A stretch of DNA of 64,000 nucleotides from a virus. The DNA lies in the IMG/VR virus record IMGVR_UViG_3300031857_000025. The stretch is one strand, 5' to 3'. The notes under the pieces are model-generated. The model searched no databases, was not told the origin of the DNA, and worked only from the letters and a program-made list of their open reading frames with translations. Shown here piece by piece: positions 31,635 to 54,644 of the stretch (positions are counted from its first letter, which is position 1; the number at the start of each line of letters is the position of its first letter). The position numbers were made by a program, and so were the translations under genes.

Positions 31635-32475
31635 CCCGCTCACTTTTTGTATATCAACATATAATAATCTGCCTTATCTTAAGATAGCAATAGATTCGGT
31701 TAGAAAAAATAGTTATTTTAAAGAAGCGCCATTTATAGTTCATTCGGAAAATTGTACAGATGGTACTAACGAATGGTTATTTGAAAACAAAGAAAGATAT
31801 AATTTAACATTAGTTATCGAGCCTCAAACTATCGAAGTTAGGGGTATAGGTGGCGGTATGAATGTTTGCGCAGATCATGTCGAAACAGAATATATAATGT
31901 TTCTGCATTCAGATTTTTATGTTACTAAAAACTGGGATATTGAATTGTTAAAAATACATGAACGATATCCTAATGAAAAGTTATGGGTGAACTCTTATAG
32001 GATTGAGCCTAATACATTTAATTCCCCAGACCGTCATGGTACAACATTTGTTCCTTTAGATATGTTTGGTGCATATCATTATAATTTCAATTCAGAAGAA
32101 TTTGAACAATGGGCTGATGAATTTAAAGTTATGAATCAGTCATATGAAGTCCCAAAAGGTGAAGGTGTTTCGGGTCTAGTTAAAAAAATGGTATGGGATG
32201 AAGTAGGTGGTAATGATCCAATATTTGCTCCGGCTAGTTGGGATGATATGGATTTATTTTTACGTATGTTACAACATGAAGTTAGATTCGTATTACCTGC
32301 TACTTCAATAGTATGGCATTTTGGTGCCAGGGGTAGTCATCGATTAGAAGAGAATAATGGGCAAACATCACAACGACAGCGAGATTCAGAACAAAAAAAT
32401 ATACAAAAATGGTTGTATAAATGGAAAAGATTACCTATATTTAACGAATATGGTATGATAGAAAAGTTTAATTAA
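31621..32475 (+). CDS. GT2 glycosyltransferase
   Basis: STYNN, CTDGT, LHSD, DDMDL. Confidence 0.8.
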   Translation: MNQSSPLTFCISTYNNLPYLKIAIDSVRKNSYFKEAPFIVHSENCTDGTNEWLFENKERYNLTLVIEPQTIEVRGIGGGMNVCADHVETEYIMFLHSDFYVTKNWDIELLKIHERYPNEKLWVNSYRIEPNTFNSPDRHGTTFVPLDMFGAYHYNFNSEEFEQWADEFKVMNQSYEVPKGEGVSGLVKKMVWDEVGGNDPIFAPASWDDMDLFLRMLQHEVRFVLPATSIVWHFGARGSHRLEENNGQTSQRQRDSEQKNIQKWLYKWKRLPIFNEYGMIEKFN

Positions 32476-32490
32476 ATAAAAAGGAGACAG

Positions 32491-33063
32491 ATGTCATTTA
32501 TGATTAATGAAAAATATGGATTTTGGGAAGGTGGCGGTCATGCAAATCACGTGTTTGATCATCCATTGGCTAATGCACTATTAAATATATTTAATACGTT
32601 AAATATTAAAAGTGTTGTAGACTTTGGTTGTGGAACAGGTGATTATACTAAATTTTTTATTGATAATGGTATAAATTGTGAAGGATATGATGGAAATCCT
32701 AATACTACTGAAGTATCAGGGGGCGTATGCGGAGTATTAAACTTAGCTAATTCCGTAAATTTAGGTAAAACGTTTGATTGTGTACTTAGTTTAGAAGTAG
32801 GTGAACATTTACCTAAAGAGTATGAAGATATTTTTATACAAAATTTAGAAACTCACTCAAAAGGATTAATTATATTATCTTGGGCACTTCCCGGTCAGGG
32901 AGGAGGAGGACATTTTAATGAACAAAGTAATGAATATATCACTGAAAAATTCTTAAAGTTTGGATATAAAAGGCAGGAACATTTAGAATTACAACTTAGA
33001 CAATCACCAGCAAATTGGTGGTTTAGGAATACGATAATGGTGTTTACAACTAAAGACATATGA
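32491..33063 (+). CDS. class I SAM methyltransferase
   Basis: VVDFGCGTG, SLEVGEH. Confidence 0.85.
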   Translation: MSFMINEKYGFWEGGGHANHVFDHPLANALLNIFNTLNIKSVVDFGCGTGDYTKFFIDNGINCEGYDGNPNTTEVSGGVCGVLNLANSVNLGKTFDCVLSLEVGEHLPKEYEDIFIQNLETHSKGLIILSWALPGQGGGGHFNEQSNEYITEKFLKFGYKRQEHLELQLRQSPANWWFRNTIMVFTTKDI

Positions 33064-33800
33064 TACACGCAGTTATATTATATTCTACTAATGATTATAG
33101 ATTTTTTGATACTTGTATATCAAATCTAATTAAATCTAACATTCACTGTCATATTGTTACATATTCTCATATGTGGAATGGTTCGGTAGAAAATTATGAA
33201 TTACTTGAAAATAGTATATCACAATTTAAAGGTAATAAGTTAGTTAATTTGTATAACATTGATTGGACAGAAGGACAGTCTCCATGGTATTGGGAAGCAT
33301 TGGGTCGATATTTAGCTACGCAGGAAGTATCTGATGATAGTGAATATATACTGTACATTGATATTGATGAAATTATTGATATTGATGATTTTAATATTTG
33401 GAAAAGTAATAATTTCTTAAATTATCAATCATATGATTTGATTAGGTTACCTAACTATTGGTATTTTAGAGAACCAATATACCAAGCTACATGTATTGAA
33501 CATAGTCCAATACTCGTAAACTCACAAATAGCTAAAGTATTACCATTTTATCCAGGCGGCAGAAATGTATACATTGATAGAATTTATAACAAACTAACAG
33601 ATAATTCACAACCATTTATACATCATTATTCATGGGTACGTACTAAAGAAGAAATGTTACGTAAGGTAAATAACTGGGGACATGATAAAGATAAAAATTG
33701 GTCTGAATTAGTCGAAGAAGAATTTCTTAGACCATTTAATGGTACTGATTTTGTACATAAGTATTCATATACTATAGTAGATAACAAATTTAATTTATAA
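33060..33800 (+). CDS. GT-A fold glycosyltransferase-like protein
   Basis: IDIDE, HHYSWVR. Confidence 0.65.
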   Translation: MIHAVILYSTNDYRFFDTCISNLIKSNIHCHIVTYSHMWNGSVENYELLENSISQFKGNKLVNLYNIDWTEGQSPWYWEALGRYLATQEVSDDSEYILYIDIDEIIDIDDFNIWKSNNFLNYQSYDLIRLPNYWYFREPIYQATCIEHSPILVNSQIAKVLPFYPGGRNVYIDRIYNKLTDNSQPFIHHYSWVRTKEEMLRKVNNWGHDKDKNWSELVEEEFLRPFNGTDFVHKYSYTIVDNKFNL

Positions 33801-33805
33801 AAATA

Positions 33806-34429
33806 ATGAAACAGTTAACAACAATAGGGTTACAGACTAACACTGATAAAGCAACGTACCATAGATTTACGGAAATTTATGATGATATATTCTCACAATA
33901 CACATCGCCTAGAATTTTGGAAATTGGTGTATATAATTTTGCTTCGATAGCAATGTATCAACAATACTTTAATAATCCATATATAGTAGCTATGGATATA
34001 GATGATAAGTCGCAATATGTTAATGATAGTTGGAAATTTGTACATGGTGATCAAACTAAAATTGAGGATTTAGCTAAATGTGTATGTGATGAGAGTGAAA
34101 AATTTGATATTATTCTAGATGACGGTGGACATACTATGAAACAGCAGCAAATAACTTTTGGGTTTTTAATAGATTATGTGAAACCTGGAGGGTATTATAT
34201 ACTAGAAGATCTTCATACTTCATTCAGACGTGATTATATTGACAGTGATTGTAAAGTAACTACGTATGATATGTTAATTTATATATACAACAATGAGTTA
34301 AATTTTAGTAATTATATAGATATGACCCAACAAAATAATATACTAAATAAAATCGACGATATAACAATATGGGCTAAAGATACTGATAATTTATATGACA
34401 GTGTCACTGCTATAATAAAGATAAAGTAA
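33806..34429 (+). CDS. class I SAM (sugar O-)methyltransferase
   Basis: TDK, LEIGV, GDQ, DDGGH, GGYYILED. Confidence 0.8.
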   Translation: MKQLTTIGLQTNTDKATYHRFTEIYDDIFSQYTSPRILEIGVYNFASIAMYQQYFNNPYIVAMDIDDKSQYVNDSWKFVHGDQTKIEDLAKCVCDESEKFDIILDDGGHTMKQQQITFGFLIDYVKPGGYYILEDLHTSFRRDYIDSDCKVTTYDMLIYIYNNELNFSNYIDMTQQNNILNKIDDITIWAKDTDNLYDSVTAIIKIK

Positions 34430-34435
34430 TTTAAT

Positions 34436-35161
34436 ATGTTAATAGCAACACTTAACCATAACCTACCTGAGTTAACAGATAATCTTGTTAATCAACTTAA
34501 ACGTGATCCATTATTTACGTCATGTGAATTAATGGTCATTGATAATGGTTCAAAAACTCAATTAGCTAAATCAACCACTCATCAGTTACAAGAAAATATT
34601 TTCTTCGGAGGCGGACTAAATGCAGCTATTGAGTATTTTTTATCTACAGACCATGACTATCTATATTTTCTAAATAATGATTTAATATTTCATGGACCTG
34701 CATTTTTAACAGTGTCACTTAAAGAAGCAAAAGAATCGGCTGCTGCAGTATATTCACCGTCTATTATCAATGCATCAACTGATCAGTGTCATTGGCGTCA
34801 GATGTGGAACTGGGGTCAAGGTCTACGTGATGTTAAGTGGATTGATTTTCAATGTCCATTATTACGTAGAGATGTTTTAGAAATTATACGACAATATCCA
34901 GAAGAATTAATATATGGATGGGGAAATGATTTTTATACAGGATGTATTTCTGAACAATATAATTTAAAAACAGTTGTATCAGATACTAATACTATTTGTC
35001 ATTTGAATTCACAAACATTTGCTCAAAATAAAATTGATATTGGCGTTTCTGAGTTTTGTCGAAGAGCCGAAACAAATATGAATAACTTTTTTAGGAATTC
35101 TGAAATGAATTCATTATACTTAAGTTTAAGAACTTATAGCGAAACTTATGACCCTAGATAA
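34436..35161 (+). CDS. GT2 glycosyltransferase
   Basis: IDNGS, LNND, GWGND. Confidence 0.75.
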   Translation: MLIATLNHNLPELTDNLVNQLKRDPLFTSCELMVIDNGSKTQLAKSTTHQLQENIFFGGGLNAAIEYFLSTDHDYLYFLNNDLIFHGPAFLTVSLKEAKESAAAVYSPSIINASTDQCHWRQMWNWGQGLRDVKWIDFQCPLLRRDVLEIIRQYPEELIYGWGNDFYTGCISEQYNLKTVVSDTNTICHLNSQTFAQNKIDIGVSEFCRRAETNMNNFFRNSEMNSLYLSLRTYSETYDPR

Positions 35162-35780
35162 TTTAGCGAACAAATATGACACGGATAAAGGCCCGGAAGG
35201 TCATATGTACACTTCTAAGTATAGCATTTACTTAGAAGCTTATAGAGATATAGAATTTAATCTTTTAGAAATTGGCGTATATAACGGAGCATCTGTTAAA
35301 ATGTGGAAAGAGTACTTTCCAAAAGCGAATATAGTAGCTATAGACATTGATCCTAGATGTAAAGAATATGAAGAAGACAGAATTACTATCCATATAGGAG
35401 ATCAGACAGATGTGAATTTTTTAAATGAAGTGTTTGATAAACATGGTCATTTTGAAGTGATATTAGATGATGGTGGGCATTCATTTAAACAGCAAATCAT
35501 TTCATTTGAAACTTTATTTCCTAGATTGACGTCAGGCGGATTGTATTTTCTAGAAGATATGCATACATCATACAGACCTAAAAGTATATGGGATGATTAT
35601 TATATTACGGGAGTAAACTATTTTAAAAATTTAATTGACGCCGTAAATCTAAATGGCAAAAGCTTTTGTGGTTATAAAGAAATTAATAACCAGCCATTAA
35701 CCTATTTAGAAAGAAATGTAGACTATATACATTTTTACAAAAGTATGTTAACAATCGGAAAAAAAGAAACTAGTCTATGA
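35148..35780 (+). CDS. class I SAM methyltransferase, paralog of 33806
   Basis: TDK, LEIGV, GDQ, DDGGH, GGLYFLED. Confidence 0.8.
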   Translation: MTLDNLANKYDTDKGPEGHMYTSKYSIYLEAYRDIEFNLLEIGVYNGASVKMWKEYFPKANIVAIDIDPRCKEYEEDRITIHIGDQTDVNFLNEVFDKHGHFEVILDDGGHSFKQQIISFETLFPRLTSGGLYFLEDMHTSYRPKSIWDDYYITGVNYFKNLIDAVNLNGKSFCGYKEINNQPLTYLERNVDYIHFYKSMLTIGKKETSL

Positions 35781-36586
35781 TATCATGCGATTTTAACGGC
35801 CGATTAGGAAATAATTTATTTCAAATAGCTACTGTAGTATCATTGGCTAATCAAATCGGCATTGATTTTATTTTACCAGAGTTAACGCATGCGGGTCATA
35901 GAGGTGACATACCAGTCGATTTAAGTATGTTTGCCTATCCTTTTAATCGAGGTAAGAATGAAATTGATCATGAATATCATGAATCTTCTTTTGAATACGG
36001 TTATATCGAGCCTAAAGATAAATTAAATTTAGGAGGATTTTTTCAATCATGGAAGTATTTTGAAAATATCAAAGAGCTACTATTAAATAAATACTTTATT
36101 CCATCGTCTAATGTTTTAGAAGGATTGAGTAAGTATATAATATCTGATAATAGCTTAGGAATTAGTGTTAGACGCGGTGACTATTTAATGTTACAAGATA
36201 ACCATTGTGTTTTAGATGTTACATATTATCAAGAAGTACTTGATACATATTTTCAAGATAATATTGACCAAATATTTGTATTTTCAGATGATCTGGATTG
36301 GTGTAAATCAATTTTTGGGCCTGAAGTAAATTATGTTCAAGACTCAATAGGAGTGCAATTATTCTTGATGACTAAGATGAAACATTTAATTTTATCTAAT
36401 AGTACTTTTGCATGGTGGGGTGGATATTTAAACCAGAATAGTGGAATTATAGTTGCTCCGAACCCATGGTTCGGACCCAATAACGCTAATATAAACACAT
36501 ATGATTTATATTATAAAAATTGGGTACTACACAATCATAATATTATATCACATGACTATCAGTTAACACTAAATATGTTTAATTAA
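35777..36586 (+). CDS. GT11 alpha-1,2-fucosyltransferase-like protein
   Basis: GRLGNNLFQ, VRRGDY, FSDD, NSTFAWWG. Confidence 0.88.
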   Translation: MISCDFNGRLGNNLFQIATVVSLANQIGIDFILPELTHAGHRGDIPVDLSMFAYPFNRGKNEIDHEYHESSFEYGYIEPKDKLNLGGFFQSWKYFENIKELLLNKYFIPSSNVLEGLSKYIISDNSLGISVRRGDYLMLQDNHCVLDVTYYQEVLDTYFQDNIDQIFVFSDDLDWCKSIFGPEVNYVQDSIGVQLFLMTKMKHLILSNSTFAWWGGYLNQNSGIIVAPNPWFGPNNANINTYDLYYKNWVLHNHNIISHDYQLTLNMFN

Positions 36587-36587
36587 T

Positions 36588-37463
36588 ATGAAAATAATGC
36601 ACATAATATACCAGATGCATGTAACGTGGTTTGAAACTGAAATGGCTCTTGAAACTATGCAATCCGTTAAAGAAGCTATTACGTATACAAATCTACCAGT
36701 TAAAATTAAATTATGCTTTAATAAGCAAACAAAATTTGACACACCGATTAATAAGACTATTGATGATATGTTTATTGAATTACTGGAACATGATTTAGTT
36801 AAACAATCTGAAATAACTTGGAAGACGGATGATGATGAATTTTATAATGTCGGCGATTGGCGTCGTGATTGTTATGACGCCAATAATATTACTATCTGGG
36901 GCGAGTCTGATTGCTTAGTACCTACTACATATTTTGGATATATTGAAAACATATTTACATCTAATATATCATATCCGTTTATAGTTACAATTAAGCAAAA
37001 GAAAATGTGGGATGAATCATGGGGACCTACCGAACATGAAGCGTTTCAAAATTTTAATTTAGATCAAGTACGTTCCATAAATAATAAATTTGTTACAGGT
37101 GAAGGATTATTAAATTTAGATGAATTAAATACATTTAATAATGCATTTAGTGAATTTCATGATCTTAAGTCTATAGATTATTATAAAGGCGATGGCGCAT
37201 TAGTTTGTTTGAGTCCAAATATGCCAGTACCATTTATATCACCTAAACTACATATGTGCGGCGAGGATACATACTTTTTTAATTACTGTCGTATAAAACA
37301 AATACCTATGTATACTATTGCATATTATATGAAAGGTCATAATACAGCACATCCTAAAAAACGTACTAATCATACTCGGAGCCAATCACAACATCATGAA
37401 TTTTCATTATTTGATAATAATATGAGAATAGTCGCATCAACTAGTTTAAATGAATTATTATGA
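36588..37463 (+). CDS. putative GT-A glycosyltransferase
   Basis: WGESD, GED; position within the glycosylation island. Confidence 0.45.
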   Translation: MKIMHIIYQMHVTWFETEMALETMQSVKEAITYTNLPVKIKLCFNKQTKFDTPINKTIDDMFIELLEHDLVKQSEITWKTDDDEFYNVGDWRRDCYDANNITIWGESDCLVPTTYFGYIENIFTSNISYPFIVTIKQKKMWDESWGPTEHEAFQNFNLDQVRSINNKFVTGEGLLNLDELNTFNNAFSEFHDLKSIDYYKGDGALVCLSPNMPVPFISPKLHMCGEDTYFFNYCRIKQIPMYTIAYYMKGHNTAHPKKRTNHTRSQSQHHEFSLFDNNMRIVASTSLNELL

Positions 37464-38428
37464 TAATAACATCATGTCCGTTACGAATATCATTAGTAGG
37501 TGGTTCTACAGACAACCCACGTTTCTTAGAAAAGTATGGCAGTGGTTCTGTGATTAGTTTTGCATCCAACTTACATGTATATATTACTCTGCATCAGGAT
37601 ATATTTGGTGCTACTTCATTGGATAAGAAATATATTATCAATTATTCAAAACGTGAATCTGTAAATAATATAAAGCAAATCGAAAATGAGCTAGTACGTA
37701 GTTGTTTTGAATATCTTGATGTAGAACATCTGAATTGTTTTATGACATCTGATGTATTTTCAGTAGGATCTGGATTGGCATCTTCATCTGCATATTTACT
37801 TGCATTAATTAAATCTATATATGCATTACGTAAACAGTATGTTACTGAATTTGAGGTATGTAAAATAGCGGAACGTATTGAAAGGACATTTAATCCGTTA
37901 GTCGGTCAACAAGACTTTTATGGATCCATGGGTGGATTAAAAAAAATTAAATTTTATAATAAGTATGATCCTGAAATTAGATATCTAGATACGACTATTT
38001 TTAGTGATATGGATATGTATTTAGTATATACAGGTATAACACGTAGCTCTACAACAGTATTAGAGAGTTTAAATGTTGATAAGTCGGTTACATTACTAAA
38101 TGATGTTAATGACTTAGAAATAGCAATCAATACAAATGATTTAGATCTATTTCATAGCGTTATTAATAGAACATGGTCAAATAAAAAACAGACGTCTAGT
38201 GTTATTTGCGAAAATACTACATTAATTGAACTTGATAAGCGACTAACGCAAGATAATAATGTGTTATCTCATAAACTACTAGGCGCTGGTAATGGAGGGT
38301 ATTTTTTATTGTTTACCCGTAAGGGTATCGAATCTATTATACAAGGTTCTTATAATAACGTGAATAAAATTTATATATCCGATATTGGATTAAATACAAC
38401 TAACTTATATGATACTACAAGACTATAA
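37460..38428 (+). CDS. GHMP sugar kinase (HddA-like heptose-7-phosphate kinase)
   Basis: PLRISLVGGSTD, GSGLASS, GQQD, KLLGAGNGG. Confidence 0.85.
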   Translation: MIITSCPLRISLVGGSTDNPRFLEKYGSGSVISFASNLHVYITLHQDIFGATSLDKKYIINYSKRESVNNIKQIENELVRSCFEYLDVEHLNCFMTSDVFSVGSGLASSSAYLLALIKSIYALRKQYVTEFEVCKIAERIERTFNPLVGQQDFYGSMGGLKKIKFYNKYDPEIRYLDTTIFSDMDMYLVYTGITRSSTTVLESLNVDKSVTLLNDVNDLEIAINTNDLDLFHSVINRTWSNKKQTSSVICENTTLIELDKRLTQDNNVLSHKLLGAGNGGYFLLFTRKGIESIIQGSYNNVNKIYISDIGLNTTNLYDTTRL

Positions 38429-38909
38429 ACAATGCGTATCTGATATATCAGAACGTCAATTGGCAGAACTCAAGACTATTATTAATAATTACCATGACAT
38501 TATCATTTTAGGAAATGGCGGTAGTAATGCAATTAGTAGCCATATCGCAGAAGATTATACAAAGACGTTAGGAAAACGTGCATTATCCTTTAGTGACTCA
38601 GCACGTATGAGTTGTTATGCAAACGACTACGGATGGGAAAGGGCATATTCAATGTTTATAAAACATTTTGCAATAGACACTACGTTAGTAATTTTAATAT
38701 CATCATCTGGTAATTCAGATAATATATTACAGGCAGCAGAGTATTGTGTAGTACACAGTATACCATTTATAACATTATCAGGTTTTTTAGTTTCAAACAA
38801 ATTAAATAACTGTTATGGTAGTAAGTCTTTAATTAACTTCCATATTAATAGTAATGACTATGGTATTGTAGAATGTATTCATGAATTAATATTACATTCA
38901 GTGCTATGA
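38409..38909 (+). CDS. gmhA: phosphoheptose isomerase (SIS domain)
   Basis: GNGGS, ANDYG, ISSSGNS, E-x2-H. Confidence 0.8.
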   Translation: MILQDYKQCVSDISERQLAELKTIINNYHDIIILGNGGSNAISSHIAEDYTKTLGKRALSFSDSARMSCYANDYGWERAYSMFIKHFAIDTTLVILISSSGNSDNILQAAEYCVVHSIPFITLSGFLVSNKLNNCYGSKSLINFHINSNDYGIVECIHELILHSVL

Positions 38910-39622
38910 TATATTGTTTTGATCTAGATAATACAATTTGTAAAACTATTGATAAAGATTATAGTAATGCATTACCGGATCTTTATGTTATTAATTCTAT
39001 TAACCAATTATACGATAGTGGTAATCAAATAAAAATATTTACGGCCCGTGGCATGGGTCAGTTTAATGGTAATATTCATAAAGTGTATGATTACCATTAT
39101 ATGGCTACTAAAATGCAATTAGAGGCATGGAACGTAAAACATCATGAATTAATATTAGGTAAACCGTCATATGATATTTTCGTTGATGATAAAAATATGA
39201 CAGTTGAACTATTTAAGAAGTATGCAATACGAGGTGTAATTGCAGGAGCTTTCGATGTGATACATCCAGGGTATATACATATGTTTCAGGAAATGTCTAA
39301 ATTATGTACACATTTAACAGTATTACTACATACCGATCCTACATTGGAACGACCATCTAAATTAAAACCTATATTAACAATTGACGAACGTTGTAGTATA
39401 TTATCGTCTATTCGTTATGTGGATGATGTTATAGTATATAATACTGAAGATGAATTATATGAGATACTTAAAAATAGTGAGTTTAATATTAGGTTTTTAG
39501 GTAAAGATTATTTATATTCAGACTATACCGGAAAAGATTTACCTATTAATATACATTTTATCAATAGGGATCATGGATGGTCATCGACAAAATTTAAAAA
39601 ACTAATTGCATCTAACATTTAA
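38906..39622 (+). CDS. HAD phosphatase fused to a cytidylyltransferase-like domain
   Basis: FDLDNT, TARG, GKP, VDDK, then GAFDVIHPGY and SSTK. Confidence 0.8.
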   Translation: MIYCFDLDNTICKTIDKDYSNALPDLYVINSINQLYDSGNQIKIFTARGMGQFNGNIHKVYDYHYMATKMQLEAWNVKHHELILGKPSYDIFVDDKNMTVELFKKYAIRGVIAGAFDVIHPGYIHMFQEMSKLCTHLTVLLHTDPTLERPSKLKPILTIDERCSILSSIRYVDDVIVYNTEDELYEILKNSEFNIRFLGKDYLYSDYTGKDLPINIHFINRDHGWSSTKFKKLIASNI

Positions 39623-39633
39623 AGGATAATTAT

Positions 39634-40485
39634 ATGAATAGTAGTTTTGAAAAAAATATACATTATGTATGGCTAGGAAATGAGCCACATGAAATGATGT
39701 TTGTAGAGTATCTAAGTATAGTATCTTCTATAATGTATTGTCAACCGAAGTCTATAAACATATGGTCTGAAGTAGATTTTTATGGTAAGTATTATGAAGC
39801 ACTAAAAGACGTGTTAACGATACATAAAATAAAAAAGGATCTGGAGATATATGGTAATAAAATTATTCATACACCTATACACGGATGGTCTGATATATAT
39901 AGAAACTTGATTATTTATGAATATGGCGGCATTTACTGTGATTTTGATATATTATGGTGTAAAGATATCTCACCTTTATTAGAAAGTATAGATTCATTTG
40001 CTATAGCCGAACAGGGAATCCATGGCCGTGAAGGGTGTAATATGGGTGTTATGATCGGTGAAAAGAATCATAAATTCTGTGAAATGTATCTGCAACTATA
40101 TCAAAAATACGATGAATATGAACAAAAAAATCATATAGGTTTATTCTCAACACAATATCCTCAACAGATTGCATTATCAATTAAAGATGAAATGACAATT
40201 TTACCATATACAACATTCCATTGGCCGTTATATCATACAAATTCTATACGATGGTTTTATTTTAATCGACCCGATGATAAAAATACATTAGTAGATAATC
40301 TAAGTGGTCAGTTATCATCGGATACGTTACTTGATAATTATGCACATCATTGTTTTGGAATTAAACACCCTGGAATAAATGAGTATATTACAGAGGAATT
40401 TATACTTAATGAAGACACATCATTTACACGAAAAGCAAAGGCAGTATTAAATTATGGAAAAAATAACTTTTTGCATTCCAAGTAA
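39634..40485 (+). CDS. GT32 (DXD) glycosyltransferase
   Basis: IHYVWLG, SDIYR, YGGIYCDFD. Confidence 0.8.
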   Translation: MNSSFEKNIHYVWLGNEPHEMMFVEYLSIVSSIMYCQPKSINIWSEVDFYGKYYEALKDVLTIHKIKKDLEIYGNKIIHTPIHGWSDIYRNLIIYEYGGIYCDFDILWCKDISPLLESIDSFAIAEQGIHGREGCNMGVMIGEKNHKFCEMYLQLYQKYDEYEQKNHIGLFSTQYPQQIALSIKDEMTILPYTTFHWPLYHTNSIRWFYFNRPDDKNTLVDNLSGQLSSDTLLDNYAHHCFGIKHPGINEYITEEFILNEDTSFTRKAKAVLNYGKNNFLHSK

Positions 40486-41641
40486 ATCTAATTTGCGATA
40501 TCTTAAAACATGTATTCCATCTATACGCAAAAACGCATACAGAGAGGATCATGATATCATTGTATTTGTTGATAGCGACGAGGATGGTACAATAGAATGG
40601 CTAGATTCCATTAAAGACGAATATAACGTAAAATATTTTGTCAACCCAGAATTAGGTAAACGACTTTATGGCATCGGTAAGGCCTATGATTTTTGTATTG
40701 AGCAATCTATAACAGATGTCTTTATGATATTTCATGCTGATATGATGTTAGGTAAAAATGCAGACTATCTAGCATTCAAGCATCTCAAAGAAAAAACCGT
40801 AGTTTGTTCAACACGTGTTGAGCCGCCAATACATCCTAATAACGGTGAAAAAATCTTAATGGATTTTGGTATGTGGCCAGAAGAGTTTGATGCAAAAGAG
40901 TTTGACGAATTTACGGAACTGCATAAACATAACAATAAAACTACTGACGGTATATTTGCACCATGGATGATGTATAAAACAGATTTCATATCGCTAGGCG
41001 GCCATGATGCAATACTAAAGTCATGCAGAGAAGACTCAGATGTATTTAATAGAATGAAACTTGCTGGATATACATTTATTCAGCCATGGAATTCTTTAGT
41101 GTATCATTTAACGGGACGCGGAGCTGGTAGTTTTGATGGTGATACGACTAGGCATGAAGCTTGGAAAAAGGAAATGAATAATTCAACTAAGGAATTTATA
41201 CGTAAATGGGGATCTAATGTAAATCATACACCATTAATGCATCCTATAGTATCTAAAAAACGTAATATTGCATTTGTAATGAAAAATGGTAATTTGCCAT
41301 TATTAGAGGCATTAGAACCATGGTGTGATAGGATTTATGTAGATGAGCGATTTGCTATTGGCAAAGCCTATGACTATATTGAAATGGGACAAGAAAATAC
41401 ATCCTATGATTTACGTAAACGAGTATTAATGATAAATGAAAATGATCCAGAAGGAGAGAATGATGTAGTTGTAGTGTTTGACGGTAATCATGTTACCCAG
41501 CAAACATTCGAACTGCTGCAGCGTATGTCAGATATTATAACAGGTACAAATGATACCGGAGAATTTGAAATTGACTGTTTAACTATAATAGTCAATAGTT
41601 TAGAAACATATGAACATAATTTAATTAAAGTAGAAAAATGA
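40454..41641 (+). CDS. GT2 glycosyltransferase
   Basis: TFCIP, DGT, HAD, EDSD; N-terminus paralogous to 31621. Confidence 0.8.
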   Translation: MEKITFCIPSKSNLRYLKTCIPSIRKNAYREDHDIIVFVDSDEDGTIEWLDSIKDEYNVKYFVNPELGKRLYGIGKAYDFCIEQSITDVFMIFHADMMLGKNADYLAFKHLKEKTVVCSTRVEPPIHPNNGEKILMDFGMWPEEFDAKEFDEFTELHKHNNKTTDGIFAPWMMYKTDFISLGGHDAILKSCREDSDVFNRMKLAGYTFIQPWNSLVYHLTGRGAGSFDGDTTRHEAWKKEMNNSTKEFIRKWGSNVNHTPLMHPIVSKKRNIAFVMKNGNLPLLEALEPWCDRIYVDERFAIGKAYDYIEMGQENTSYDLRKRVLMINENDPEGENDVVVVFDGNHVTQQTFELLQRMSDIITGTNDTGEFEIDCLTIIVNSLETYEHNLIKVEK

Positions 41642-42546
41642 AACATGCAGTAATTGGCGGTGCAGGATTTATCGGACACCACATTGTTAACAAATTAATC
41701 GAACGAGGTGATGAGGTTATCGTAATTGATAATTTATCAACTGGATATTTAGCGAATGTACATGAAAAGGCACGTTTTCATCAATTTGATATTATCGACG
41801 AAGTAGCAGTAAAAGTTATATCAGATCTGCTGTATGGAGTAGATACTGTTTACTTAACTGCTGCATTAGCTCGAGTACAACCATCTATAGAACAGCCTAT
41901 ATTATTCAATGAAACTAACGTAACTGGCATGTTACGTGTATTAGAAGCATGTCGTACGGCACAAGTACGTCGTGTAGTCTTTTCATCGTCTAGTAGCGTT
42001 TATGGTGAAACGATAGTATATCCAACGCCGGAACATACTCCGGTTAATCCACTTAGTCCATATGCATTGCAAAAGTTTATTGGAGAACATTATTGTAGAC
42101 TATATAGTCAAATATATAATCTAGATACAGTATCATTACGCTATTTTAATGTATATGGTAATGGCATGCCATTAGAAGGGGCATATCGCTCCGTATTAAG
42201 TATCTTTGGTAATCAATATAAGAATGATCAGCCATTAACGTATACAAACGACGGATGTCAGTCTCGAGATTTTGTGCATGTGCATGATGTAGCTGATATT
42301 AATATACTTCTAGGAGATTATCATGAACCAATAATGGGGGACGTATATAATGTTGGTACTGGATATGATTATTCAGTAAATCAGATCATGGATATGTTTG
42401 GTAGCCCTCGACAGTTCCTAGAAAATCGAATAGAACCTATACGTACATTAGCTGATATAAGTAAATTACAAGCAAAGTTCGGATGGGAACCTACTGGTAG
42501 TTTAGCCGCCTTTATCGAACAGTATAAGAAAGATCTTAAATCATAA
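41638..42546 (+). CDS. NAD-dependent epimerase/dehydratase
   Basis: GGAGFIG, SSSSVYG, YALQK, RYFNVYG. Confidence 0.92.
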   Translation: MKHAVIGGAGFIGHHIVNKLIERGDEVIVIDNLSTGYLANVHEKARFHQFDIIDEVAVKVISDLLYGVDTVYLTAALARVQPSIEQPILFNETNVTGMLRVLEACRTAQVRRVVFSSSSSVYGETIVYPTPEHTPVNPLSPYALQKFIGEHYCRLYSQIYNLDTVSLRYFNVYGNGMPLEGAYRSVLSIFGNQYKNDQPLTYTNDGCQSRDFVHVHDVADINILLGDYHEPIMGDVYNVGTGYDYSVNQIMDMFGSPRQFLENRIEPIRTLADISKLQAKFGWEPTGSLAAFIEQYKKDLKS

Positions 42547-47183: not shown

Positions 47184-47714
47184 ATGCCATATAAGCCTGG
47201 CCAGGGAAGAACACCATTAAATATATCTGAATCGGAAATCAGGTATGCCATGAGCAATGCAAAAACTGCTCGAGGATGTGCCAGATTTCTAAAAGTTACT
47301 TATCGTACCTATGAGAAGTATGCTAAGAGATATGTGGATAGTGCTACTGGTAAGACCTTATATGAATTGTCTAAAAACAAAGGTGGTAAAGGAACGCGTA
47401 GGAATGTAGTATATTCAGAGAAACGTAGTACGCCATTAGATGCCATCCTGCGTGGAGAACATCCTAATTATGATCTACATAAGCTCAAACATAGATTACT
47501 ACGAAGTGGTGAAATGGCAGAACAATGTGATTGTTGTGGATTTGAAGAACGACGTATAACCGATTATACAGTGCCATTGCTCCTGATTCATTTGAATGGA
47601 GACCGTACAGATCATCGTCGTGAGAACCTGCAACTACTATGTTACAATTGTACATACCTGCAATCTCATAATACTTTTGGTGGTAGACCCCGGACAATTA
47701 TTATAAATCCGTAG
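47184..47714 (+). CDS. HNH-like nuclease-domain protein with N-terminal HTH-like region
   Basis: CDCCG, HLNGDRTDHRRENLQLLCYNC. Confidence 0.7.
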   Translation: MPYKPGQGRTPLNISESEIRYAMSNAKTARGCARFLKVTYRTYEKYAKRYVDSATGKTLYELSKNKGGKGTRRNVVYSEKRSTPLDAILRGEHPNYDLHKLKHRLLRSGEMAEQCDCCGFEERRITDYTVPLLLIHLNGDRTDHRRENLQLLCYNCTYLQSHNTFGGRPRTIIINP

Positions 47715-47722
47715 TGACGGTA

Positions 47723-47828
47723 CGGTAAGTCCTTGATTATCAATGAGTTACCGGAGCAAAAGTAACTTTTCTTACTTTTCTCTAGGATTTCGAGGATTTT
47801 GTACTTATCTTTATGAAATAATTAAAAA
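47723..47828 (+). repeat. palindrome plus promoter cassette, copy 1
   Basis: CGGTAAgtccTTGA-tta-TCAAtgagTTACCG, then AGTAAC...CTAGGA-TACTTATCTTTATGAAATAATTAAAAA. Confidence 0.8.
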
Positions 47829-47836
47829 GAAAGAAT

Positions 47837-47920
47837 ATGGTATTCAAATTAGACAAACCTACCGTCAGCGCTTTAGCCGTTGTATTATGCTTAACCGTTT
47901 TGGCTTTATTAGTGGCATAA
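47837..47920 (+). CDS. 27 aa single-TM peptide, not in the ORF track
   Basis: MVFKLDKPTVSALAVVLCLTVLALLVA directly after a promoter. Confidence 0.55.
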   Translation: MVFKLDKPTVSALAVVLCLTVLALLVA

Positions 47921-47988
47921 AGTAACATTTTTAACTTTTTTCTAGGATATATAAAAAAGTGTACTTATATTTATGAAATAATTAAAAA
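47919..47988 (+). promoter_or_regulatory. promoter cassette, copy 2 (no palindrome)
   Basis: AAGTAACATTTTTAAC...CTAG-N20-TATATTTATGAAATAATTAAAAA. Confidence 0.75.
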
Positions 47989-48258
47989 ATGATAATTAAA
48001 GGTATGGAAAACAAAAGAACAATGGTACTAACAAAAATTAGTAAGCAATTACCAGGACAAGAAAGAGCGTTCTTGGAATTCATGGGCGGAACTGTAAATT
48101 CATTTGAGAATTGGTCAGAGAAAAGCATGGACGAATTATTGAATTGTTTTATTGAGTTCGAGGAAACTGAAAATGAGGTAGAATTAACAGATGAAATAGC
48201 AGATGAGCTATTGGAAATGTATATTCCAGGTTATGTTAGTGGTGAAGGAGTTTTCTAA
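47989..48258 (+). CDS. hypothetical acidic protein
   Basis: ORF behind a promoter cassette. Confidence 0.6.
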   Translation: MIIKGMENKRTMVLTKISKQLPGQERAFLEFMGGTVNSFENWSEKSMDELLNCFIEFEETENEVELTDEIADELLEMYIPGYVSGEGVF

Positions 48259-48269
48259 ACTTTAAAAAT

Positions 48270-48355
48270 GCCGAGGTGATGGAACTGGTAGACATGCAAG
48301 ACTTAAAATCTTGTGGGTAGTGATACCCGTACGGGTTCGATTCCCGTCCTCGGTA
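48270..48355 (+). tRNA. tRNA-Leu(TAA)
   Basis: acceptor GCCGAGG/CCTCGGT, anticodon arm CAAGA-CTTAAAA-TCTTG, long variable arm, GGTTCGATTCC. Confidence 0.95.
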
Positions 48356-48440
48356 CTAAAAAGAAAAAATCTTAAAAAAGATTTGGTTTTTTGAGATAAC
48401 GTTCTTATATTTATGAAAGATGAATAAGAAATTGTTTAAA

Positions 48441-48584
48441 ATGGCAAAAGCATCTGATAGAGAGCTTAGAATAGAAGCCGGCTTCTTTGATGGCCGATTC
48501 GCTCCTAAGCAATTTACGGATCGCAAGAAAAAGTCTAAACGATTAGCCTGCCGTAAGTGGAAACTGAATAAACAAGAGTATTAA
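48441..48584 (+). CDS. 47 aa basic protein, not in the ORF track
   Basis: MAKASDRELRIEAGFFDGRFAPKQFTDRKKKSKRLACRKW...; own promoter at 48382-48413. Confidence 0.6.
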   Translation: MAKASDRELRIEAGFFDGRFAPKQFTDRKKKSKRLACRKWKLNKQEY

Positions 48585-48612
48585 AAATTTCTTAAAAAAA
48601 GTTACAAAAAGA

Positions 48613-48644
48613 TTTGGTAAATCAAAATATTGTACTTATATTTA
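48613..48644 (+). promoter_or_regulatory. promoter of the ncRNA/tRNA operon
   Basis: TTTG-N20-TATATTTA. Confidence 0.75.
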
Positions 48645-48649
48645 TGAAA

Positions 48650-49553
48650 TAATTGTGAGAGAGAAAGTTCTTTGAAATATTATTATCCATTCAGTAGTTG
48701 ATTATGAGACCTTCGGGTTGATTATGAGACATTTAATCTGATAAATGATAATCGGCCGCTTATGGTCGTTAAATAAACTGGGAAACCAGGATAAAGTGAA
48801 TCACCTTAGTTGAAGTGGTTTGCGGCTTTAGTAATAGAGCTCAAGTAAGCAAGTAGGATATCATTGGTCCTTTGTACCTGAGGGTAACACTGTAGGGGAA
48901 GTGGATTGATGACTGAGCGATGCAGGTCGTTTGGTTGAGTTCGGAAGAATAATAAGAATAACCTATAGGAATTATGTAAGAAGTATGCTTATCCAAGTAT
49001 ATTATTGCGAGTTCCAATATAAGAGGAATCTTAAAGCTGAAAGGCAAGTCAGTGTACGGGTGGTGCCGTTACTGTACCGGAGACTTATCTACCAAGGTAG
49101 GTTTACGTAGATTTCTTGAAGTATGGAGGTGGGGACACTTCAGAGAGTAGTTAAGTATTGACTCGTTCAAAAGATGAGTTAGCTTGTGATAGGCCACTAC
49201 TTTCCGAATCTGCAACTAAAACCTTTGCATTGATTAGCAAACTAATAAATAACAAAGCAAAAGTGCCTATCAGCTACGGATGAAAGATGCCTACACAGTA
49301 ATGGGTTGTCCATTGCCATTGAAGGTCGCAAGCCTAAGATGATATCTTTGAAAGGTCTATAGCTCCGCAAGAGTTAATTAGCCCGGCAGGGTTGAATAGA
49401 ATGAGTAAGAGGTGAGTAGTCCAAACAAGTAGCTCAAAGAGTGGTGTACTTAAATCACCGGCATTGTTAGGATAGTATCCAAAAGATACTGGACAAGAAG
49501 GGAAAACATAATCCGACAAAAGACCTAACACCGAAGCTGTAGTCTCAGGCTTT
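48650..49553 (+). ncRNA. ~900 nt structured RNA, GOLLD-like
   Basis: no + strand ORF of 60 aa or more, richer in GC than its flanks, many GNRA/UUCG-capped helices, lies between phage tRNAs; family assignment from size, context and recall only. Confidence 0.7.
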
Positions 49554-49561
49554 ATATAAAT

Positions 49562-49638
49562 TGTGGGATAGAGCAGTTGGCCAGCTCGTTAGGCTCATAA
49601 CCTAAAGGTCGGTGGTTCGAATCCATCTCCCGCAACCA
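49562..49638 (+). tRNA. tRNA-Met(CAT), initiator-like
   Basis: weak 1:72 pair, A11-U24, TTAGG-CTCATAA-CCTAA, encoded CCA. Confidence 0.9.
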
Positions 49639-49651
49639 TTAAAAATTAGTT

Positions 49652-49921
49652 ATGGAAAACAAAAAGTATTCAGTAGTTTATAAAAATGCTGAAACAACAA
49701 GTACCTGGACCTATGATCTTAGTAAGACTCGTAACGGTCCAGTTTCTGTTGAAATAGAGTATCATGATGGATTGGTTGAACGTAAGGTTAAAACTAAAGA
49801 GCCAAAAGTGAAAAAAGCAAAAGTGGTTAAAGCTAAACCAACTCCAGTTAAGAAGAAAAAGATTGTTAAGAAGAAAAGTGTTAAGAAGAAAATAAACACT
49901 AATCTTGGTCGGTTCGTCTAG
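49652..49921 (+). CDS. Lys-rich basic-tail protein
   Basis: KVKKAKVVKAK...KKKKIVKKKSVKKK; the stop codon lies inside tRNA-Glu. Confidence 0.65.
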   Translation: MENKKYSVVYKNAETTSTWTYDLSKTRNGPVSVEIEYHDGLVERKVKTKEPKVKKAKVVKAKPTPVKKKKIVKKKSVKKKINTNLGRFV

Positions 49922-49978
49922 GGGTCAGGACACCAGATTTTCATTCTGGGAACACGGGTTCGATTCCCGTACCGACTA
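49907..49978 (+). tRNA. tRNA-Glu(TTC)
   Basis: GGTCGGT/ACCGACT, CCAGA-TTTTCAT-TCTGG, GGTTCGATTCC. Confidence 0.93.
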
Positions 49979-49981
49979 CAC

Positions 49982-50126
49982 GTGCCACTTGATTGGTGGC
50001 TAGTATGTGTAATACGAAAGAAATGGATTGATCTCCATATGCACTAACGCGGGGTGAGAAGGCTCCTACGATTGTTGACTGGTCGGCCCAAGAATAGGTA
50101 AGAGTCGGTGGTACCTTATCAGTCAA
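49982..50126 (+). ncRNA. unidentified structured RNA (~145 nt)
   Basis: GCCAC/GTGGC, ATGGA/TCCAT, TTGACTGGT/ATCAGTCAA helices. Confidence 0.45.
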
Positions 50127-50130
50127 AAAT

Positions 50131-50228
50131 GCTCAGGTGGCGGAAGCGAGACTATTGCAATGGTTCGATAGAAGACGCTAAGGAAACGAGCCAGCAATGG
50201 CATGAAGGTGCAAGTCCTTCTCTGAGTA
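50131..50228 (+). ncRNA. tRNA-like RNA lacking an anticodon arm
   Basis: acceptor GCTCAGG/TCTGAGT+A, Leu-type D stem, variable arm GCCA-GCAA-TGGC, T arm GAAGG-TGCAAGT-CCTTC. Confidence 0.65.
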
Positions 50229-50229
50229 C

Positions 50230-50435
50230 AATGAGTAAGAGATACTCACCAGTCTTTGAATCAAGACTTTACCAATGATTCCGCAGAATGTCTACGGCGC
50301 GAGTGGGACATCGTGGGAATAAAGGCGGCAATCACACCTCCTCCTACGTAGTGTGACTTTTTTAACGGGGATGCCCTTCAGGTTTCATCAATAGGAAAAA
50401 ACCGAAATGACTACTCACCGGAATCTCAGGTGGGG
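50230..50435 (+). ncRNA. unidentified structured RNA (~205 nt) sharing motifs with the large RNA
   Basis: TGAGTA/TACTCA, AGTCTT/AAGACT, TCACAC/GTGTGA, CTCACC/GGTGGG hairpins. Confidence 0.5.
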
Positions 50436-50440
50436 AATTT

Positions 50441-50517
50441 GCGCTCTTAGCTCAGTTGGTTAGAGCAACTGACTCATAATCAGTAGGTACCTGGTTCGAT
50501 TCCAGGAGGGCGCACCA
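50441..50517 (+). tRNA. tRNA(CAT), probably Ile2 (lysidine type)
   Basis: GCGCTCT/AGGGCGC, ACTGA-CTCATAA-TCAGT, encoded CCA; body resembles Ile2 more than Met. Confidence 0.9.
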
Positions 50518-50520
50518 AAC

Positions 50521-51044
50521 AGTAGACGTTCTTTGACATAAAACTTATAGGAGAAAATAATATGGAAACAATGTATTTCGTTTTAGGTATGCTCTCGATC
50601 ATTGGAGTTATCGCAATAGCAACAATCGTTTGGGGTATAGTTAAGATTAGCAAATTGTTAAAGGTAATTAAACAACAGGAAGAGTGGATCATAAACAACG
50701 AACGTCAGATACACGATACCCTTTATCGTTTGCGTGAGGATCTAGATCGTAGAATGGATATTATGGATCGGTATGGTTGTGATCGAGTAACTGATCTACA
50801 ACGAGAACTAGATTCTAGATTTAATACAATAGAACGTGAACAAGAAAAAATAGAAGAGGAATTGCATAGACGTATCGGTCATGAAAATGAAGATATGATG
50901 ATTGAAATAAACAGTCAAATCACAGATGCAGTTACACAAAGCACGTCATATACGGATAAACGTATTGATAAACTTATTGATACTTACTTTATGGTAAGTG
51001 AAGCAAAGAAACAAAAATAATTAAACCGTTAAAGAACGTCTACT
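50521..51044. repeat. 17 bp inverted repeat flanking ORF 50562
   Basis: AGTAGACGTTCTTTGAC (50521-50537) versus GTTAAAGAACGTCTACT (51028-51044); one G-U pair. Confidence 0.85.
50562..51020 (+). CDS. membrane-anchored coiled-coil protein
   Basis: N-terminal TM segment, heptad-rich body. Confidence 0.7.
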   Translation: METMYFVLGMLSIIGVIAIATIVWGIVKISKLLKVIKQQEEWIINNERQIHDTLYRLREDLDRRMDIMDRYGCDRVTDLQRELDSRFNTIEREQEKIEEELHRRIGHENEDMMIEINSQITDAVTQSTSYTDKRIDKLIDTYFMVSEAKKQK

Positions 51045-51059
51045 ATAATATTATAAGTT

Positions 51060-51554
51060 ATGAGAGTATTAGTTATATTAAGTATGGCATGTGTATTAGT
51101 CAGTGCCACATTAACAAAACCAAAAACAGAAATTCCATCGGATGCTGTTCGTATGTATAGAGCCATTATGCTTTATTCCGGAATGTATCAAGTTCCTAAA
51201 CATGTAGCATTTAATATTGCTCATTTGGAAACAACATATCGAGGACCGCAAGATTCAATTTATAATCCTTCCAGAGCATCCAAGGCTGGAGCATTAGGTC
51301 CAATGCAAATCATGTATCGTTATGCATCTCATTTTGCAGAACGCAAAGTAACCAAAGCTGAATTAAGAGATAGTATTGAGTTCAATGTTAATTTAAGTAT
51401 GAAGATACTAGCCGAGAACTATAAACGATATAAGAGTTGGGCAAAGGCAGCTGGTGCATATAATACCGGAAGACCTATTATTAACAGATATGCCAGAGAA
51501 GCCGTTAAAAAAGATTACCAAAGAAATTGGATCATTGTGAAAGATTCATTATAA
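51060..51554 (+). CDS. lytic transglycosylase (SLT)
   Basis: signal peptide, HLET, GALGPMQI, AYNTG. Confidence 0.85.
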   Translation: MRVLVILSMACVLVSATLTKPKTEIPSDAVRMYRAIMLYSGMYQVPKHVAFNIAHLETTYRGPQDSIYNPSRASKAGALGPMQIMYRYASHFAERKVTKAELRDSIEFNVNLSMKILAENYKRYKSWAKAAGAYNTGRPIINRYAREAVKKDYQRNWIIVKDSL

Positions 51555-52930: not shown

Positions 52931-53079
52931 TAGAACAAAAAAAAGAGATCCAACAATTAACAATGGCAGTAATTACGGGTATTATACTAGGAGTAGCTAT
53001 TGTAATGATATTAGCAACTGGATGTGTATCTAAACATCCTAAATGTGCTGCATATGATAAAATTGAAACAGTGAAATGA
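52927..53079 (+). CDS. small putative lipoprotein
   Basis: hydrophobic stretch, LATGC lipobox-like, CAAY. Confidence 0.55.
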   Translation: MIEQKKEIQQLTMAVITGIILGVAIVMILATGCVSKHPKCAAYDKIETVK

Positions 53080-54644
53080 GATTACTATTATTCTTATTAC
53101 TAATACCCAACCTAATATTAGCACAATGCGCAGGTAACCAATCCTTTACATTAACACCTGCACCAGTAAACGGAACCTACGAACCAGGCACAGTAGTAAC
53201 CATGTGTTATACTATGAACGGGTGGGATACTGGATTTGGATCCAATTGGATAGAAGGATTTGGAATAGTATTAGGACCAGGATGGGTTTCATATACTCCC
53301 ATATTAGGACCTGATGATTGTGGTGGAGCAGTTGCTGATCAAGGTTGGTTATGGTTAGAGACCGTAACTAATGATCTAGGAACACTCACAGTAGGTCCAG
53401 GTTACTTCTATGAAGGACCACAAGGTACTATTGATGGTAACCCAGGAAATGATTGGGGTGACTTTGGAACAAACTGCTTATGGACATTCTGCATACAGCT
53501 ACAAGTATCTGATGAGTGTGATCCACTATCGCTACTAATTGAGGTAACTCCTTATGCCGATGGCACAATGGGTAGTTGGGGTAATGAATCATGTTTCGAT
53601 CCTGCCTTCCAAGTCTTTACTGGTACTATTGTCGGTGGAGATGTTGATACTTCTCCTATAACAATACCAACAGATACTATATGCGTAGGGTCAACACAAA
53701 CATATGCAGTTGTTAACACTCCAGGATCTGTCTATGATTGGACTTTATCAAACGGCGGGACATTAACTGAGAATGGTTCCAATACTATTATAATTGATTG
53801 GGCAGGTGTACCTGGAGATTATATTATTACAGTACAAGAAACGACTGTGGATGGTTGTGTTGGTGATATTATTGATACTACTATTACAGTTGCTGATACA
53901 TTAATAGTGTTCAGTCAACCTACTACCGGAATATGTCTAGGAGATACTTTACACCTTAATGCTATTCCTAATGATGGTTATTGGTCTGGCGGTAACTTAA
54001 CTGGTAATGTGTATACTGGTAATACTCCAGGATATCAATTCGTTAAATATACTGTTAACATTTATGGGTGTACAGTTACTGATTCCGTTAGAGTATTTGT
54101 TAGAGAGTTATTTACATCTCCAGTAATTAGTGGATTGCAGTATATCGATCTATGTTTATCAGATCGCGTTCAAACTTATTATACTGTTGATGATCCTAGT
54201 ATTGAGTATACATGGTTAATGGGTAATCAGACATTACTAGATACAGATTATGATCTGCAAATGATTTGGCCGGACAGTACCATGGGTTATACTTTAGGAG
54301 TATTTGGAACTGATACAATTGGATGTCGTAGCGAAGTAGGTTATATTAATGTTGCTGTAACAGCATGTCATAGAATATTCGTACCTAATTCATTTACTCC
54401 TAACGGGGACAGTTATAATGATGCTTTCCGAGTAGTTGGATCGGCAGTATATGATTTGGATTTCAAAATATATAATCGATTTGGTAGTGTAGTTCATAAG
54501 ATATCATCTACCAATGAATACTGGAATGGTAATGATGGTTCGGGATATTATTGTCCTACCGGAATATATAATTGGATAGCTACTTATAGCGATGACCAAG
54601 GACTTAGACATACAGAGAAAGGACATATAATTTTAATACGATGA
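53076..54644 (+). CDS. secreted PKD/Ig-like protein with T9SS type B C-terminal sorting domain
   Basis: signal peptide; FVPNSFTPNGDSYND...IYNRFG...WNG...GIY...GHIILIR. Confidence 0.88.
   Translation: MRLLLFLLLIPNLILAQCAGNQSFTLTPAPVNGTYEPGTVVTMCYTMNGWDTGFGSNWIEGFGIVLGPGWVSYTPILGPDDCGGAVADQGWLWLETVTNDLGTLTVGPGYFYEGPQGTIDGNPGNDWGDFGTNCLWTFCIQLQVSDECDPLSLLIEVTPYADGTMGSWGNESCFDPAFQVFTGTIVGGDVDTSPITIPTDTICVGSTQTYAVVNTPGSVYDWTLSNGGTLTENGSNTIIIDWAGVPGDYIITVQETTVDGCVGDIIDTTITVADTLIVFSQPTTGICLGDTLHLNAIPNDGYWSGGNLTGNVYTGNTPGYQFVKYTVNIYGCTVTDSVRVFVRELFTSPVISGLQYIDLCLSDRVQTYYTVDDPSIEYTWLMGNQTLLDTDYDLQMIWPDSTMGYTLGVFGTDTIGCRSEVGYINVAVTACHRIFVPNSFTPNGDSYNDAFRVVGSAVYDLDFKIYNRFGSVVHKISSTNEYWNGNDGSGYYCPTGIYNWIATYSDDQGLRHTEKGHIILIR

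Follow-up and report, generated by a model that had tools for sequence, protein, structure and literature searches.

The window analysed here, a stretch of 64,000 nucleotides from the IMG/VR virus record IMGVR_UViG_3300031857_000025, is part of a large uncultured phage, with genes for PolB, a gp32-like protein, UvsX/RecA, a DnaB-type helicase, a clamp loader, RNR and GroEL. A hint of a Bacteroidota host comes from a protein (53076-54644) that has a type IX secretion domain, CHU_C. Among cultured phages, Microcystis phage Mel-JY01 comes nearest, its PolB being 44% identical. The window also contains radical-SAM and GTP cyclohydrolase I genes (13838-15652), suggestive of a 7-deazaguanine pathway, and about ten glycosyltransferase and sugar-nucleotide genes in a block (27729-42546). 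Annotation of 38 of its ORFs with Pfam and PHROG shows no tRNA-related enzyme genes.

An RNA locus lies on the + strand at 48.2-50.6 kb. It consists, in order, of a tRNA-Leu(UAA), a GOLLD RNA, a tRNA-Met, a small ORF, a tRNA-Glu, a 145-nt spacer, the element that is the subject of this work, a small RNA of about 210 nt, and a tRNA with a CAU anticodon (Table 1). There is no terminator-like site in 48000-51200. The element is outside the GOLLD match, being about 580 nt downstream of it and past two tRNAs. A Lys-rich ORF of 89 codons (49652-49921) has a frame that ends 15 nt into the tRNA-Glu gene. The spacer (49982-50126) has no BLAST homologue in any related locus compared, and in relatives the element often comes directly after a tRNA.

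Table 1. Parts of the tRNA-Leu-like element and the neighbouring RNA genes in the window.
Feature	Position	Strand	Remarks
GOLLD RNA, conserved 3' domain	49143..49551	+	Rfam RF02032, 279.7 bits, E = 5.5e-80
tRNA-Glu(UUC), nearest same-strand upstream tRNA	49907..49979	+	ARAGORN and Rfam
Acceptor stem, 5' strand	50131..50137	+	pairs with 50221-50227; 7 pairs
tRNA-Leu-type hinge: U8 G9, D-stem 5' strand (50140-50142), G13 A14 A15 G16	50138..50146	+	D stem GCG/CGC, 3 bp with 50176-50178
Hairpin inserted in the D loop	50147..50167	+	2 bp, bulged A, 6 bp, tetraloop UGCA
3' part of D loop and D-stem 3' strand (50176-50178)	50168..50178	+	
Unpaired 11-nt linker replacing the 17-nt anticodon arm	50179..50189	+	
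Variable arm	50190..50201	+	4 bp, GCAA (GNRA) loop
T arm	50204..50220	+	5 bp, loop UGCAAGU, G at position 55
Acceptor stem, 3' strand, and discriminator A73	50221..50228	+	CCA not encoded; next bases CAA
Conserved small RNA of about 210 nt, adjoining the element	50229..50440	+	relatives 70-85% identity
tRNA with anticodon CAU, usual downstream neighbour	50441..50517	+	ARAGORN

Read directly from the sequence, the element is a 98-nt look-alike of tRNA-Leu that occupies exactly 50131-50228 of the + strand. The original prediction described it as a Leu-like tRNA mimic with paired acceptor, D, variable and T stems and A73, with only 11 nt in place of the anticodon arm, a GACTAT-TGCA-ATGGTT hairpin inserted in the D loop, and the T loop TGCAAGT. 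All of these features are present as described. Two others had gone unnoticed, namely the self-complementary tip of the hairpin and a change of positions 18 and 55 to A and G. The 3' part of the D loop reads AUAG where tRNA-Leu has G18 G19, and then AA.

The element is missed by the standard tools. ARAGORN makes no tRNA or tmRNA call on it, nor on any of its relatives, and an Rfam cmscan of 47500-51500 (4227 models, E<=10) leaves it unmatched, also by the tRNA model RF00005. Its fold as a single sequence is unremarkable (z = -1.9), with the minimum free energy structure favouring a different, long central hairpin. That hairpin was rejected because its pairing is not conserved in relatives, where it is 60.7% paired as compared with 58.5% in shuffles. 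The element is overlapped by a 56-codon ORF; the lengths of relatives differ by numbers not divisible by three, which means that the element does not code for protein and that this ORF is not a gene.

The first relatives were found by a motif scan of viral contigs and in loci anchored on a neighbouring ORF. A covariance model, R1, was built from six relatives, and later members came from R1, a second viral motif scan and one metagenome scan. There are more than 90 loci, in uncultured-phage and metagenome contigs, with R1 scores of 74-121 bits, and these reduce to 62 distinct sequences of 98-111 nt. All 62 variants combine an acceptor stem of 7 bp with a D stem of the Leu type, a D-loop hairpin of 8 bp, a short variable arm, and a T arm with the loop UGCAAGU. 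The variable arm is GNRA-capped in most relatives, and is longer in L055 and L002. The slot for the anticodon arm holds either a linker of 10-13 nt or a mini-hairpin of 4 bp with a loop of 4-6 nt, and none of the 62 distinct relatives has a 7-nt anticodon loop or an anticodon arm. The original prediction had named random decay from an intact tRNA in relatives as the finding that would speak against it; no such decay is seen, all 62 being without the arm in the same way.

The pairing is strongly conserved. In a MAFFT alignment of 22 sequences, which was not fitted to R1, 97.8% of the cells pair, compared with 27-44% in slid controls, and 18 of the 27 pairs are changed on both sides. For 49 distinct metagenome sequences the figures are 98.2%, 25-42% in slid controls, and compensatory changes in 19 of 27 pairs. 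It had been proposed that the retained pairing reflects selection, to be checked by covariation among homologues, and both alignments bear this out, the compensatory changes being located in the acceptor stem, D-loop hairpin, variable arm and T stem. The acceptor stem is changed on both sides in 6 of 7 pairs, with 99% of cells paired in the alignments of relatives; between the window and the L076 type it differs at 5 of 7 pairs and the pairing is kept. Compensatory changes are found in 5-6 of the 8 hairpin pairs (two alignments), with G-U pairs tolerated, in all 4 pairs of the variable arm (100% of cells paired in the 49 metagenome sequences), and in 3 of the 5 T-stem pairs (two alignments). 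The D stem does not vary in relatives, and therefore has no support from covariation; homology to tRNA-Leu is its only basis. The clear conclusion is that the structure of the element is kept by selection, with pairing in the relatives far beyond chance. Judged from these alignments, the family is not a decaying tRNA, and is probably a type of stable-RNA gene.

The invariant sequence motifs need to be read with more care than the stems. The scan patterns fixed parts of the D-loop and T-loop motifs, including part of the hinge, and left the stems, hairpin, variable arm, linker and N73 free; because several invariant motifs were inside the search patterns, their invariance is partly by construction. 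This applies in part to AUAG..GACGC, which is invariant among relatives in the alignment A4. The hinge segment is also invariant in A4, and its decamer also occurs in E. coli tRNA-Leu. All members have AG instead of GG and G55 instead of U55, and G55 is found in all 22 of the members that were recovered by a pattern leaving the T loop unspecified. A73 is present in 59 of the 61 full-length distinct relatives, while every acceptor pair varies.

A 28-mer search of viral contigs gave no near-identical copies. Among cultured phages, blastn with the region and two divergent members found no family member, the sole matches being a 36-nt resemblance to ordinary tRNA-Ser genes, with a normal T loop, in Klebsiella T5-like phages; Mel-JY01 has no member either, only a normal tRNA-Leu(UAA). 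From a pattern scan of bacterial genomes, R1 matched one among the at least 80 loci listed (L159, 84 nt, 44.5 bits), with a score in the range of ordinary tRNA-Leu genes. The literature searched contains no description of this anticodon-less Leu-like phage RNA family; set against that literature, Rfam and the tRNA finders, the family is apparently undescribed.

The Leu-like nature of the element, as originally proposed, is upheld by R1, whose highest scores on ordinary tRNAs, both in related phages and in T4, fall on tRNA-Leu genes. The likeness to class II tRNA-Leu extends to the 7-bp acceptor stem with A73, to U8, A14 and the Levitt pair of A15 with U48 (the U before the T stem), to the GCG/CGC D stem with its Leu-type 3' side and the A preceding the 3' strand, to the extra (variable) arm, and to the 5-bp T stem with a 7-nt loop that has U54 with A58, and C56; G19 and C56 are kept by sequence. 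The element is unlike tRNA-Leu in that it has no anticodon arm (a 5-bp stem and 7-nt loop in a canonical tRNA), carries a 21-nt hairpin in the D loop, and has A for G18 and G for U55. In E. coli, leucine identity comprises A73, A14, A15:U48, U54:A58, C56 and the A before the D-stem 3' strand (PMC9976931). The synthetase, LeuRS, reads A73 and the tertiary shape, with the anticodon and extra arm being dispensable in E. coli (PMC9976931), in agreement with the background given in the original prediction. According to the summary in that paper of Larkin et al. (2002), a truncated tRNA-Leu without an anticodon arm is still charged.

However, G18:U55 is important for leucylation in E. coli (PMC9976931), and its replacement here by A and G means that charging may be lost. 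It is also worth adding that A73 and the hinge could have been inherited, and retained for folding alone. The change to G55 is coupled with the change of G18 to A: the sister RNAs described below keep GG and have a normal T loop with U55, implying that the two changes go together. From the sequences, A18 and G55 may form a compensated tertiary pair; their co-occurrence could equally be explained as one shared ancestral event.

The tip of the D-loop hairpin is self-complementary in 60 of the 62 variants (CAUG in 30, UGCA in 26 and CGCG in 4), as are 16 of the 256 possible tetramers. These three tips are spread over 37 different stem contexts, so that the tip is conserved while the stems drift. 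To convert one tip into another, two loop positions have to change together, either 1 and 4 or 2 and 3. The latter two are adjacent and unable to pair within one hairpin, which supports pairing between two copies, and the conservation of self-complementarity rather than of one sequence argues for the same. The G-U pairs in the hairpin stems indicate that the constraint is at the level of RNA. In a nearest-neighbour model, which shows plausibility only, dimer formation is about 7.6 kcal/mol more favourable with the natural tips than with GAAA. These observations suggest that the RNA might dimerize, through a kissing loop or an extended duplex at the hairpin tip, a proposal that we hold tentatively and rate at somewhat below even odds. 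Against it, a loop of 4 nt is small for kissing, the tip is non-palindromic in two variants (L223 and L258), and that of the sister type L002/L010 is AGGC. Hairpin modules have apparently also been swapped between bodies (L004 compared with L065), so that there are few independent loop changes. Pairing of the linker or hairpin tip with the adjacent small RNA was considered separately and rejected: the small RNA has no matching palindrome, and an AAA/UUU switch in the linker is not mirrored there.

The genomic setting is that of a tRNA gene. In every one of 71 distinct contexts the element lies within a tRNA array and is co-oriented with the phage tRNAs, and the gaps to ordinary tRNAs are often 4-7 nt on both sides; close-packed examples are Met-element-Met in L071 and Leu(UAA)-element in L076. 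The CAU tRNA is the next tRNA downstream in 41 of the 71 contexts, in 25 of those no more than 10 nt away, and C is the first base of the trailer in 24 of 25 loci. The arrangement is that of any ordinary gene in a polycistronic tRNA array, and leads naturally to the proposal that RNase P, 3' trimming and CCA addition act on the element, and on this basis it is very probably processed and CCA-tailed like a tRNA.

The small RNA of about 210 nt is present in 22 of the 71 contexts and is then always within 10 nt of the element, upstream in 13 cases and downstream in 9. No complementarity between the two RNAs was found. Two motifs that are conserved in the GOLLD 3' domain recur at the 5' and 3' ends of the small RNA, which also contains a hairpin whose loop is CCUCC-rich. 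GOLLD and the element are found together in the window, L002 and L005. In L001 there is a GOLLD homologue and no R1 member was found, and none of fourteen loci scanned with Rfam has GOLLD at the gathering score, five of which carry the element, including L058 with its array of 23 tRNAs.

The presence of tRNA genes in phages is usually put down to codon supply or to evasion of anticodon nucleases. Neither accounts for a conserved RNA that has the shape of a tRNA and can read no codon; such an RNA shows that phages retain the other half of the molecule for some different purpose. The explanation that we favour, with a probability of roughly 55% for the whole, is that the element is a non-decoding RNA, derived from a class II leucine tRNA, that serves as ligand for a host factor that reads the body of tRNA, with LeuRS as the first candidate because of A73 and the Leu-type hinge. 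The element would be co-transcribed with the phage tRNAs, the GOLLD RNA and the small RNA, and then excised by RNase P at 50131, trimmed at the 3' end after A73, and given CCA by the host enzyme. With the anticodon arm lost, reading of codons is impossible. The half retained, comprising the stack of acceptor and T arm, the elbow and the Leu-type hinge, is the one read by processing enzymes, LeuRS and elongation factor. The D-loop hairpin would protrude near the elbow, where its self-complementary tip could join two copies. The RNA would present itself to a factor that reads the tRNA body and not the anticodon; in the case of LeuRS this would involve binding, possibly with leucylation. Recognition by LeuRS in particular is a possibility to which we give a little less than an even chance.

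A more elaborate form of this proposal, and a rather unlikely one, is that the RNAs form symmetric dimers, in which two anticodon-less, CCA-tailed, leucine-chargeable top halves, held together by the self-complementary hairpin in the D loop, act on host LeuRS, or on some other factor that reads class II tRNA bodies, with the effect of reprogramming or protecting translation during infection. If true, the family would be an example from nature of a tRNA-scaffold RNA that has a quaternary structure of its own, encoded in the same RNA operon as GOLLD, an RNA that is itself cage-forming. In any case the family provides a small (98 nt) and well-defined object of study, for which the predictions are processing by RNase P with CCA addition, possible leucylation without decoding, and dimerization. 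It also represents a recurrent class of phage RNA gene that is missed by tRNA finders and Rfam, and whose paralogues are sometimes mislabelled as tRNA-His or tRNA-Ser.

The likeliest alternative, though still an unlikely one, is that the RNA acts as a decoy or sponge, directed at a host anti-phage effector, toxin or tRNA-quality-control factor that reads the class II body or the 3' end, such as an acceptor-end nucleotidyltransferase, a pyrophosphokinase or an acceptor-stem nuclease. The factor would be soaked up by an RNA that is useless for translation and hence harmless to it. This would account for the conservation of the top half, elbow and A73 without the decoding part, and for the several non-decoding Leu-like paralogues per phage in related contigs. 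There is a precedent in that phage tRNAs are known to counter tRNA-targeting defences (PMC13434031; see also PMC12673091). However, the well-studied tRNA-cleaving defences cut the anticodon loop (PMC13434031), which the element does not have, so that anticodon nucleases cannot be the target; the suggestion in the original prediction of a decoy for such nucleases is hard to reconcile with this. A decoy would also face competition from the host's own very large tRNA pool, and the sequence points to no particular effector.

The original prediction also raised the possibility of an amino-acid donor, here a carrier of leucine off the ribosome, charged by LeuRS and donating to a transfer of the L/F-transferase or Fem type. 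Most of the leucine identity set is kept, tRNA-Leu without an anticodon can be charged (PMC9976931), and a non-decoding acceptor would leave translation unperturbed. However, no aminoacyl-transferase gene was found among the 38 annotated ORFs of the window, the G18:U55 pair is altered, and the self-complementary hairpin is left unexplained, and from the sequence we consider this role improbable. Similarly improbable is that the element is a mere processing module, with no function as a free RNA, that recruits RNase P and 3' nucleases to make the ends of the adjacent small RNA. It is true that the small RNA, when present, adjoins the element on one side in 22 of 22 cases, but it is absent in 49 of the 71 contexts, and a processing module has no need for a conserved hairpin tip, a GNRA variable arm or A73. 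Moreover, both neighbours are often ordinary tRNAs 4-7 nt away, which makes an extra processing signal unneeded, and the earlier idea of a processing signal is therefore disfavoured as the only role. Finally, a tRNA-Leu pseudogene in neutral decay, or a palindromic site in DNA for protein binding or recombination, is very improbable: tRNA finders do reject the element, its single-sequence fold is not exceptional, and in some relatives the hairpin is perfectly palindromic as DNA, but a pseudogene would not have a uniform architecture in 62 variants with compensatory changes throughout, the G-U pairs in hairpin stems (including that of the window) would be mismatches in DNA, and three distinct palindromic tips cannot be the site of one protein.

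Several known RNAs resemble the element in part. In nature the closest analogues are the T4 species 1 and 2 RNAs (rnaC and rnaD), which are likewise small, stable, non-tRNA RNAs inside a phage tRNA cluster, and of which rnaC has a canonical T arm with an acceptor-like helix at its end. They are not homologous: with its filters switched off, R1 scores 3.9 bits on rnaC and has no match on rnaD, and these RNAs are 119-139 nt long, with different folds and without a Leu-type hinge or D-loop hairpin. The tRNA-like domain of tmRNA also has the acceptor and T arm of the top half without an anticodon. It is, however, made from the two ends of an RNA of about 360 nt with a tag reading frame, has G3-U70 for alanine identity and has no D stem, whereas in the element 3-70 is U-A, a D stem is present, and the whole is a closed unit of 98 nt.

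Y RNAs of the YrlA type (RF02553) are non-decoding tRNA mimics with an elbow and T arm, and some Y RNAs are phage-encoded. In these it is the acceptor-like end that is closed, with the free ends making up the Ro60-binding stem, whereas the free ends of the element are at the acceptor stem; cmscan of 47500-51500 gave no match to RF02553 at E<=10, and no Ro60-like gene is seen among the 38 annotated ORFs of the window. The plant mitochondrial t-elements and mascRNA are also tRNA-like and non-decoding, and are processed by RNase P and RNase Z. They serve mainly to define the ends of a neighbouring transcript, whereas the neighbours of the element are often ordinary tRNAs. All four (tmRNA, YrlA, t-elements and mascRNA) likewise use a tRNA form that does no decoding, but from the differences above the element belongs to none of them. 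A close parallel in form is the minimalist tRNA-Leu of Larkin et al. (2002), which has no anticodon arm and is charged by E. coli LeuRS; as summarised in PMC9976931, when both anticodon and variable arms are absent charging depends on A73 and on contacts between the D loop and T loop. That RNA is engineered and has G18:U55 intact, whereas the natural family alters this pair and adds a hairpin.

Other tRNA-like RNAs were observed in the course of the searches. A second Leu-like, tRNA-shaped type has a conserved acceptor, a normal T arm and an aberrant middle, is 82-147 nt long, and occurs in several copies per phage (L058:4554-4635 and 4690-4809; L005:214-301 and 379-525; L055:10788-10877(-); L050:631-758). 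ARAGORN mislabels some of these copies as tRNA-His(atg) or tRNA-Ser(gga).

The sister RNAs (L002:3711-3873; L010:3101-3241; L038:2715-2860; L032:2015-2135; L025:3690-3811; L036:3782-3874; also L008) are found in related phages at a similar position, where they immediately precede the last tRNAs of the array. Each has a hairpin in the D loop and a normal G18G19/U55 elbow, is without an ordinary anticodon arm when read by eye, and has a much larger lower domain, the longest of these RNAs being 163 nt. In appearance they resemble natural tRNA scaffolds that carry a variable cargo.

The UGCAAGU T loop also occurs together with odd middles in tRNA-like RNAs of unrelated viral contigs or prophages (L042:11403-11503(-), L053:10268-10376(-), L056:3771-3888(-) and L057:11311-11412(-)), on which ARAGORN makes zero calls. 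Lastly, four contigs from Chitinophagales MAGs (L100, L101, L117 and L118) contain a repeated stretch that, without a T arm, carries the D-arm-like motif of the family.
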